NCBI GenBank assembly: GCA_022561875.1 | Contig: JADFQJ010000001.1 | Span: 96,501 to 160,500 of the forward strand | Reading direction: 5' to 3' | DNA from: Bacteroidota bacterium | GTDB lineage: Bacteria; Bacteroidota; Bacteroidia; Bacteroidales; VadinHA17 | DNA: 64,000 bases | In this document: one piece after another, positions 19,954-22,299 of the stretch | How the letters are laid out: each line of letters begins with the position of its first letter | How positions within the stretch are numbered: position 1 is the stretch's first letter | Made by a program: the position numbers and the translations under genes | The notes under the pieces: model-generated | Told to the model about the DNA's origin: nothing | Database searches by the model: none | Seen by the model: the letters and a program-made list of their open reading frames with translations, nothing else

Positions 19954-20520
19954 TCATTTTTTCCGGTTATAAAGATTCATAGTGCGTTTAATTCCAATTG
20001 TACCGAAACTCCGGATAATTTCAACAGACTTATTTACCAACCCGGTGAGTTGTTTTTCTTCCTCATTTGTCCATTTTCCTAAAACATAATTAACCTGGGC
20101 TCCCTTGCCAAACTCACTGCCAATACCAAAACGCAGACGAGCATAATTATTGTGGCCTAAAATTGTTGAAATGTTATTTAATCCGTTATGCCCGGCGTCA
20201 CCACCACGAGACCTTAGTCTGAGTGAACCGAAAGGTAAGGAGAAGTCATCAACTAAAACAAGCAATTTCTCAACAGCTATTTTTTCTTTTTGTAACCAGT
20301 AGTTTACTGCTTTCCCGCTCAAATTAACGTAAGTTGTAGGTTTTAACAGGACAAAAGTGCGTCCTTTATATTTATATTCACCCCTGAAGCCATAGCGTTT
20401 ATCCTGAAAATCAATATTGGACAACCCGGAAAGAGCGTCCAATATTGTAAATCCGATATTATGGCGTGTATTCTGATATTCTCCGCCAAAATTTCCTAAC
20501 CCTGCGATCAGAAATTTCAA
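19954..20520 (-). CDS. pth: Peptidyl-tRNA hydrolase
   Basis: AGLGN, TRHNIGF, KPTTYVNLSG and GHNGL; TTG start. Confidence 0.96.
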   Translation of the reverse strand: MKFLIAGLGNFGGEYQNTRHNIGFTILDALSGLSNIDFQDKRYGFRGEYKYKGRTFVLLKPTTYVNLSGKAVNYWLQKEKIAVEKLLVLVDDFSLPFGSLRLRSRGGDAGHNGLNNISTILGHNNYARLRFGIGSEFGKGAQVNYVLGKWTNEEEKQLTGLVNKSVEIIRSFGTIGIKRTMNLYNRKK

Positions 20521-20537: not shown

Positions 20538-21239
20538 TTATTCAGATTTTTCTTCTTTCCGGTCTTCTTCCGGCTTTTCTTCAACTGCTTCAGCACCTTC
20601 AGCTGCTGCTTCTCCTTCAGCAGGTTTAGCTTCAGCCACAAGTTCAGCCTTTTTAGCCTCGATATCTTCAATAGCTGTAAGCATAGCTTTGGAGACAATT
20701 CTGGCTGAAACTATTGAAATAATCATTGCCCCTGAAGAGTCGAGAAATTCCAATCCTTCGAATTCAATATCTTCAATCCTGATTGTATGACCAATATCAA
20801 ACTCGGTAATATCTATTTCAATAAACTCAGGGAAGTCTTTAGCAAGACCTCTGACTTTAAGGTGTCTTCTTCTGATACGTAGTCTTCCACCGGCCTTTAA
20901 GCCGACTGATTCACCAACAATCCTGACAGGGATATTAATGATCACAAGTTGATCGAGGTCAAACTCTTTAAAGTCAGCATGGATGATCTTATCAGTTACC
21001 GGATGAAACTGAAGGTCCCTGATAACCGCATTGTGAATATCCCCTCCTATATCAATTTTCAGAAAATATACATTTGGTGTATATACAATATCTTTGAAAT
21101 TAAGTTCAGGCATAGAAAAATGTATGGTTTCTTTACCTCCGTACATTACACAAGGTACTTTTTCTTCCATTCTTAATTTCCTGGAGTGTTTTTTACCTGT
21201 ATCCTTCCTTTTAGTACCTTTTAACTCGATCGTTTTCAT
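20538..21239 (-). CDS. rplY: 50S ribosomal protein bL25 / Ctc (long form)
   Basis: VPCVMYG, LQFHPVTDKIIHADF and TL5-like C-terminal domain with acidic tail. Confidence 0.95.
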   Translation of the reverse strand: MKTIELKGTKRKDTGKKHSRKLRMEEKVPCVMYGGKETIHFSMPELNFKDIVYTPNVYFLKIDIGGDIHNAVIRDLQFHPVTDKIIHADFKEFDLDQLVIINIPVRIVGESVGLKAGGRLRIRRRHLKVRGLAKDFPEFIEIDITEFDIGHTIRIEDIEFEGLEFLDSSGAMIISIVSARIVSKAMLTAIEDIEAKKAELVAEAKPAEGEAAAEGAEAVEEKPEEDRKEEKSE

Positions 21240-21256
21240 TTTACTAAATTTTGGTT

Positions 21257-21318
21257 ATGCTACTCAAGGATTGTTTAATATTTTTAATTCTCAGTCAACA
21301 ACAATCCTCCCATCACAC
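21257..21318 (-). promoter_or_regulatory. Candidate bL25 ribosomal leader (5S rRNA loop E mimic)
   Basis: mRNA reads GUGU-GAUGGG-AGGAUUGUU-(24 nt)-AACAAUCCU-UGAGUA-GCAU: a perfect 9-bp helix with a GAUGG/GAGUA internal loop and a 4-bp closing helix, ending 17 nt before the AUG. Confidence 0.65.
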
Positions 21319-21347
21319 GTTAGTAAATAACTGATTTTTACGGGGTG

Positions 21348-21355
21348 CAAATATA
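21348..21355 (-). promoter_or_regulatory. -7 promoter box for rplY-pth
   Basis: TATATTTG(CA) on the minus strand, implying a 5' UTR of about 100 nt. Confidence 0.6.
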
Positions 21356-21360
21356 ATAAC

Positions 21361-22299
21361 TTATTGTATAAAACTATCACTAATTGATTGATAATTGTAA
21401 ACTTTGTCGATCACCTCAGCAAAAATTTTAGCCACGGAAAGCACTTTAATTTTGTTTGATTCCTGTTTTAAAGGAATAGAATCAGTTACGAGGAGTTCTT
21501 TGATTGGTGAGTTTTCGATTCTTTCATACGCAGGACCTGACAGGATCGCATGTGTTGTAGCTGCACGGATACTTTTTGCTCCTTTGTCCATCATCATACG
21601 TGCAGCTAAAGTGATAGTCCCGCCGGTATCAACCATATCGTCAACAATAACAATATTCTTGTCCTTCACATCACCAATTACCTGTATCTCATCAACATAA
21701 TTTGCTTTTTTTCTTAATTTATAGCAAATAACCATTTCAGATTTAAGAAATCTGGAATAAGCATTAGCCCGTTTTGTTCCTCCCATATCAGGTGCCGCAA
21801 TTACCAGATCTTCAAGGTTGAGGTTTTTAATATATGGTACAAAAAGTGATGAGGCAAAGATATGATCAACCGGAACGTTAAAAAATCCCTGAATTTGATC
21901 GGCATGGAGATCCATGGTCATTACACGGTCAACTCCGGCAGTGGTGAGAAGATCGGTTACCAGCTTAGCCCCGATTGAGACCCGTGGTTTATCTTTCCTG
22001 TCCTGACGGGCAAACCCGTAATATGGGATGACCGCAACGATATTGTATGCAGAAGCTCTTTTGGCAGCATCGATCATCATCAATAACTCGAACAGATTAT
22101 CCATAGGTGGAAATGTTGATTGCATTATATAAACATTACAGCCTCTTACTGATTCATCATATGAGGGCTGAAACTCACCATCGCTGAATTCCACCACGGA
22201 ACTTTTACCAAGTTCACTTCCGAAATTTTTAACGATCTTCTCTGCCAGGTAGCGTGTTGCTCTACCTGAAAAAAATTTTATAGGAGCTTTGATTTCCAT
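21361..22299 (-). CDS. prs: Ribose-phosphate pyrophosphokinase
   Basis: FSDGE, YYGFARQDRK, MDLHA, PDMGG and VDDMVDTGGT. Confidence 0.97.
   Translation of the reverse strand: MEIKAPIKFFSGRATRYLAEKIVKNFGSELGKSSVVEFSDGEFQPSYDESVRGCNVYIMQSTFPPMDNLFELLMMIDAAKRASAYNIVAVIPYYGFARQDRKDKPRVSIGAKLVTDLLTTAGVDRVMTMDLHADQIQGFFNVPVDHIFASSLFVPYIKNLNLEDLVIAAPDMGGTKRANAYSRFLKSEMVICYKLRKKANYVDEIQVIGDVKDKNIVIVDDMVDTGGTITLAARMMMDKGAKSIRAATTHAILSGPAYERIENSPIKELLVTDSIPLKQESNKIKVLSVAKIFAEVIDKVYNYQSISDSFIQ

Follow-up and report, generated by a model that had tools for sequence, protein, structure and literature searches.

A conserved RNA hairpin in front of the gene for ribosomal protein bL25 (rplY) in Bacteroidales carries the same letters as part of the binding site of that protein on 5S rRNA, and we consider it probable (about 0.7) that it is a new bL25 autoregulatory leader that partly mimics loop E and through which the protein would shut off its own synthesis. 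The window analysed is a stretch of 64,000 nucleotides from a Bacteroidota bacterium (Bacteroidales, VadinHA17; assembly GCA_022561875.1, contig JADFQJ010000001.1, positions 96,501 to 160,500). On its minus strand the genes run prs, rplY and pth, all three confirmed by Pfam. The original prediction had described, between a consensus promoter box and the rplY start codon, a perfect 9-bp helix that places GAUGG opposite GAGUA, followed by a G.U pair, closed by a 4-bp outer helix and ending 17 nt before the AUG, and this description proved correct at every coordinate. The parts of the locus, all on the minus strand, are the following.

21361 to 22299 (-), prs (ribose-phosphate pyrophosphokinase), the upstream neighbour, not part of the element.
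21348 to 21355 (-), TATATTTG, matching the TAnnTTTG '-7' box of the Bacteroidota primary sigma factor (consensus as quoted in Ryan 2020, PMC7366714); the rplY transcript is predicted to start a few nt downstream.
21315 to 21318 (-), 5' strand of the outer helix (GUGU).
21309 to 21314 (-), 5' strand of the loop-E-like core, GAUGG plus the G of the conserved G.U (alignment columns 9-14).
21300 to 21308 (-), 5' strand of the inner helix, AGGAUUGUU.
21276 to 21299 (-), apical loop of 24 nt, variable in length and sequence among relatives, in which predicted apical loops span 3-24 nt.
21267 to 21275 (-), 3' strand of the inner helix, AACAAUCCU.
21261 to 21266 (-), 3' strand of the loop-E-like core, the U of the G.U and then GAGUA.
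21257 to 21260 (-), 3' strand of the outer helix (GCAU; GCAC or ACAC in most relatives).
21240 to 21256 (-), A/U-rich linker of 17 nt between hairpin and AUG, the presumed 30S landing site, without a Shine-Dalgarno sequence.
20538 to 21239 (-), rplY, with its ATG at 21239-21237, encoding a two-domain bL25 of the CTC/TL5 type with 233 aa.
19954 to 20520 (-), pth (peptidyl-tRNA hydrolase), 17 nt downstream of rplY and probably co-transcribed.

The rplY product matches PF01386 (1.2e-24) and PF14693 (7.5e-21) and aligns with bL25 chains of solved ribosomes, although its C-terminal tail (20538-20680), about 45 residues long, rich in Ala, Glu and Lys and located beyond the TL5_C domain, is not covered by the closest solved homologues. 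Within the 62-nt hairpin (21318-21257) the juxtapositions are G21314.A21261, A21313.U21262, U21312.G21263, G21311.A21264 and G21310.G21265, followed by G21309.U21266. The 5S rRNA of the same genome reads GAUGGUA / GAGAGUA at loop E, and the five pairs named in the original prediction therefore carry the same letters in the same order. Considered as a single sequence, however, the resemblance is only weakly beyond chance. The two pentamers at a distance of 20-50 nt occur 5 times in the window against 2.4 expected, 10 of 100 shuffles reaching 5, and a loose descriptor consisting of the core plus 3 bp on each side gives 44 hits on both strands of the 2.77-Mb genome. The whole 121-nt spacer between prs and rplY does not fold unusually well (z -0.61), whereas the 62-nt hairpin alone does (-14 kcal/mol, z -3.05, 1 of 200 shuffles as good).

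The comparative evidence is decisive. Among 30 bL25 loci from the genus, family and order, 23 carry the motif under a strict pattern and a 24th under a relaxed one, and their inner stems are quite different but still complementary. In one relative of the same genus (L006, of an 87%-complete genome) the promoter box and the A-rich linker are kept but the whole hairpin is cleanly missing, which is either a natural deletion or an assembly artefact, while the five other same-genus relatives keep it. A covariance model built from 15 of these sequences (R1) finds a single hit in the genome of the window even at E<=10, and that hit is the site described here. In a sample of 151 genomes of the order, 69 have a hit at E<=0.001, always exactly one, whereas PF01386 finds bL25 in 147 of the same 151 genomes. 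When both coordinate tables were compared by eye, 68 of the 69 hits lay on the same contig and strand immediately 5' of bL25, the remaining hit being situated at a contig end. As a test blind to structure, the pattern GTGTRATGGG-N(14-44)-AGTARCAC was scanned over one genome of each prokaryotic species and gave at least 120 stretches, of which 80 were inspected: 67 lie 4-35 nt 5' of a bL25 gene, 2 are Bacteroidales hits cut by a locus or contig end, and 11 occur in other taxa (Bacillus, Vibrio, Clostridia and others) with no bL25 nearby and, by eye, no complementary stem in their spacers.

On 51 model-aligned leaders, 8 of 16 pairs change on both sides, and the covariation score is 0.372 against 0.168 for shuffled alignments (0 of 500 shuffles reach it) and at most 0.123 when partners are slid. 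The six inner pairs (15-20 of the alignment) show 9, 18, 20, 18, 10 and 13 sequences changed on both sides, and RNAalifold predicts the same fold on its own. Although fitting the alignment to the model favours the structure, the complementarity is seen directly in the raw sequences. In contrast to the freely covarying inner helix, the core hardly varies: the first pair (column 9/84) is G.A in 40, A.A in 10 and C.A in 1 of 51 sequences, the following A-U, U.G and G.A are found in 51, 51 and 50, and AGUA on the 3' strand is invariant. The fifth pair is not invariant (GG 31, GA 10, GU 7, AU 2 and GC 1 of 51) and is followed by G.U in 44 of 51. The outer helix is nearly invariant as GUG/CAC, with G-C in 48 and GU in 2, U-A in 48 with one CG and one GC, G-C in 51 of 51, and U.G in 31, UA in 14, CG in 3 and CA in 3 sequences for its successive pairs, and in divergent members it compensates to GCG/CGC and GGG/CCC. 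The three C.A cases at column 8/85 (loci L010, L012 and L015) stand where other leaders have U.G, U-A or C-G; C.A and U.G wobble pairs can be isosteric, which hints that the geometry is constrained at this position. In the variable part, the tetramer AGCA occurs in 59 of 147 leaders, 55 of them at the predicted apical loop; about 10 are expected from shuffling, the loop in the window lacks it, and it may reflect shared descent or a second contact point.

For comparison with 5S rRNA we used 25 5S genes of the order, namely those of 30 loci whose loop E matched our search pattern. Loop E reads RAUGGUA (G 22, A 3) and GAGAGUA (24 of 25) in these genes, and helix IV is mostly CUGC...GUGG (17). The leader thus copies G.A, A-U, U.G and G.A between two helices, the first submotif and centre of the bacterial loop E motif, including the same G/A alternative at the first pair, which would fit an isosteric sheared pair. 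Coupling of the choice of G or A between leader and 5S of the same genome found no support. Of three genomes with A in 5S, of which two were compared, one (G031) has a leader with A and one (G027) has no leader, and two genomes with A in the leader (G070 and G064) have G in 5S. The second submotif (G.G, U.A and A.G), which completes the seven non-canonical pairs of loop E, is not reproduced: only 4 of the 7 pairs are conserved in the leaders, and the half next to helix IV is replaced by a conserved G.U and Watson-Crick pairs, so the mimic is partial. In the L25-5S complex (PMC15747; PMC1171714) the protein reportedly also grips the junction of loop E and helix IV. As bacterial loop E is nearly two-fold symmetric, the orientation of the mimic is ambiguous, identity to the 5S of the order being 13 of 22 in the register of the original prediction and 11 of 22 in the reverse register by our own count. 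In the reverse register the 5' strand GUGU|GAUG of the leader would stand for the 5S strand GUGG|GAGA and the outer helix for helix IV, which would explain why the outer helix is so conserved.

A second covariance model, R2, built from the 51 sequences, hits 3 of 4 same-order genomes and 0 of 147 genomes of other orders in a sample of the class (one of these genomes, G265, is unpublished), and 4 of 5 same-order genomes and 0 of 146 others in a sample of the phylum. Scanning 28 rplY loci of other orders without filters gave one doubtful local match of 13.7 bits (E 0.24) just 5' of the bL25 gene of locus L132, from another order of the class, which reads GAUGGGAAA...UUUUGAGUA with a GUU/AAC outer helix; two family relatives (L253 and L254) lack the motif and a third (L123) shows no clear one. 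Within the order the filters lose some members, as among 40 of the 78 genomes with bL25 but no hit, 6 carry the motif when scanned without filters and one or two more appear to do so by eye. By extrapolation, roughly half of the order has the element, the counts being drawn from samples of genomes that are related to each other, and it is therefore dispensable. The other genomes mostly have rplY right behind prs without a promoter box, or a box followed by a short leader. Many leaderless genomes (among loci L063-L099) share a different bL25 N-terminus (MKTVSMSGS...) and have rplY directly behind prs without a promoter box, and absence or loss of the leader appears to go with co-transcription from prs. 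In one locus without the motif (L078; G109:C71:3565-3703) the 3' end of a 5S rRNA gene and a terminator-like hairpin lie about 90 nt upstream of the bL25 start; the contig ends there, so the context is incomplete. Carriers are recorded as Muribaculaceae, Prevotella, Segatella copri, Porphyromonas, Odoribacter, Dysgonomonas, Proteiniphilum, Paludibacteraceae, Marinilabiliaceae, Tannerellaceae, Parabacteroides, Barnesiella, Bacteroides, Rikenellaceae and Labilibaculum, which include major gut, oral and rumen genera.

Context was examined in 147 distinct instances drawn from 242 loci, of which 182 had a bL25 match. The hairpin ends 13-18 nt before the AUG in 112 instances, and a TAnnTTTG box lies upstream in 144, mostly 18-37 nt before the motif. 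The linkers are 58.5% A and 26% U. Pairing between the 5' flank and the linker or AUG, suggested by the fold of the spacer in the window, was rejected, as the mean pairing probability over 134 leaders is 0.289 against 0.308 with a shuffled flank. A Pth homolog is present in 140 of the 147 loci, counted irrespective of its position relative to rplY, whereas prs is present in only 59.

In our view the hairpin is a cis-acting leader of the rplY(-pth) mRNA, specific to Bacteroidales, and probably serves as the operator for autogenous control by bL25, the N-terminal domain of which docks at loop E in 5S rRNA. When bL25 exceeds free 5S rRNA, it would bind this partial mimic, and as the base of the hairpin sits only 13-18 nt from the AUG and Bacteroidota do not use Shine-Dalgarno pairing (PMC10931766) but would initiate on an unstructured A-rich stretch, the bound 23-kDa protein, placed at the edge of the 30S footprint, would keep the 30S subunit off the mRNA by displacement, lowering synthesis of bL25 and, if pth is co-transcribed, probably that of Pth. 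The analysis itself demonstrates the RNA element, its structure, its specificity for rplY, its spacing and its likeness to loop E, whereas binding by bL25, repression and its mechanism, co-regulation of pth, the transcription start and the non-canonical pair geometries are inferred from sequence, the likeness to the rRNA site of the protein being only indirect support for binding. The interpretation of the original prediction, that excess bL25 binds a loop E mimic and represses rplY and possibly pth, is supported insofar as its computational expectations, which had been set as tests beforehand, were fulfilled: no Rfam family matches, orthologous leaders carry the motif with conserved core pairs and covarying helices, the element is tied to rplY alone, and autoregulation of rplY in Gammaproteobacteria, stated as background, is established (Aseev 2015, PMC4408793; Rfam RF03131). 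It requires correction in that the range is one order and not the phylum, in that only four non-canonical pairs are conserved, and in that binding, repression, pth co-regulation and the transcription start remain inference. A caution also comes from E. coli, where L25 represses its own translation but the purified protein did not shift its own leader in vitro (PMC4408793), so that autoregulation need not mean simple binding.

It seems unlikely, although nothing computed here separates the outputs, that bL25 binds the leader but acts by faster mRNA decay, Rho-dependent termination within the leader or trapping of the 30S subunit in an inactive complex. Both displacement and entrapment have been discussed for E. 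coli (PMC4408793), but the tight spacing to the AUG is what steric competition predicts and is not needed by decay or Rho models, and no terminator-like site is found on the minus strand of the spacer. About equally unlikely is a conserved 5' UTR element that works without bL25, as a stabiliser against exonucleases, a processing site or the target of another protein, its likeness to loop E reflecting convergent use of a common RNA building block. Loop-E-type submotifs do occur in other RNAs, the pentamers alone are not rare and only half of loop E is copied; yet a stabiliser needs no invariant non-canonical core while its helices drift, and the element occurs once per genome and only before the one gene whose product binds loop E, at a fixed spacing to the AUG.

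Two further possibilities are very improbable and were rejected. The AUG inside the core, present in all 147 instances by construction of the search pattern and also in the 51 model-aligned sequences, might start a leader peptide controlling rplY, but the resulting ORFs run from 2 to more than 22 codons, their frame relative to rplY is spread evenly (53/49/45), nothing beyond Met-Gly is shared, the AUG lies inside a helix without an A-rich upstream stretch, and changes on both sides of pairs fit RNA pairing rather than coding. An intrinsic terminator or attenuator of prs would agree with the location between prs and rplY in the window; however, no U-tract follows the stem, the tail being A-rich, the terminator scan of the minus strand of the spacer found no such site, a promoter box lies between the prs stop and the hairpin, and prs is absent from 88 of 147 motif-bearing loci.

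A bolder view, which we regard as doubtful, is that the two-domain bL25 of Bacteroidales recognises a half loop E in its own mRNA, which would be the first direct rRNA mimic for a 5S-binding protein and the minimal RNA determinant of bL25 recognition. The near-invariant outer GUG/CAC helix may then stand in for 5S helix IV in the reverse register, clamping the protein at the edge of the 30S landing site of an mRNA without a Shine-Dalgarno sequence, and competition between free 5S rRNA and the leader would set the output of both bL25 and Pth, tying assembly of the central protuberance to the supply of peptidyl-tRNA hydrolase.

Feedback control of ribosomal protein genes by rRNA mimicry is a textbook idea. 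For bL25, though, the only known leader, that of E. coli and its kin, shows no likeness to loop E and gave no band shift in vitro, so how L25 recognises its mRNA is open (PMC4408793). The element described here offers a small, clearly defined candidate operator whose core equals half of the best-studied L25 site, making this question directly accessible to binding, competition and mutation. It would be the first leader for the long (CTC/TL5-type) bL25, as a 2024 review ties autoregulatory features to the short form only (PMC10931766), and it would add a case of translational control in Bacteroidota. Rfam 15 has no match in the spacer at E<=10 and none in the whole window at gathering scores. 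Full-text searches found no description of a Bacteroidales rplY leader, and the B. thetaiotaomicron transcriptome paper (PMC7366714) does not mention ribosomal protein leaders in its main text, though its supplement might hold a mapped rplY start.

The L25 leader of Gammaproteobacteria (RF03131; Aseev, Bylinkina and Boni 2015, PMC4408793) is likewise a cis element in the 5' UTR of rplY, upstream of a start site without a normal Shine-Dalgarno sequence, and mediates negative feedback by L25 on its own translation, but it is unrelated in sequence and structure. RF03131 (gathering score 34.1 bits) recognises E. coli at 46.9 bits but nothing in the spacer at E<=10 or in the whole window at gathering score, whereas R2 finds nothing at the E. 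coli locus. The E. coli hairpin 'does not resemble' loop E, and this leader occurs in species with the short one-domain L25 (PMC10931766), whereas the element here goes with the long two-domain protein. With loop E and helix IV of 5S rRNA, the ribosomal binding site of bL25 (complex 1DFU; sequence quoted in PMC1920249), the leader shares letters and order for G.A, A-U, U.G and G.A, plus G.G in the window, with a helix on each side, but the flanking helices differ, the 5S model RF00001 has no match in 20900-21700 at E<=10 although it scores the true 5S gene of the genome at 79.7 bits, and the leader models do not hit 5S. The L13 and S4 motifs of Bacteroidia (Eckert and Weinberg 2020, PMC7247131) are also lineage-restricted, hairpin-type leaders before ribosomal protein genes of the same class, found by comparative genomics and with the ligand inferred from the regulated gene, but they have different genes, ligands and structures. 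This dedicated survey lists no L25 leader outside Enterobacteria, at least outside its supplement, where a motif seen and discarded might be found, and it reports that its S4 motifs in this lineage show no likeness to rRNA, whereas the element described here does.
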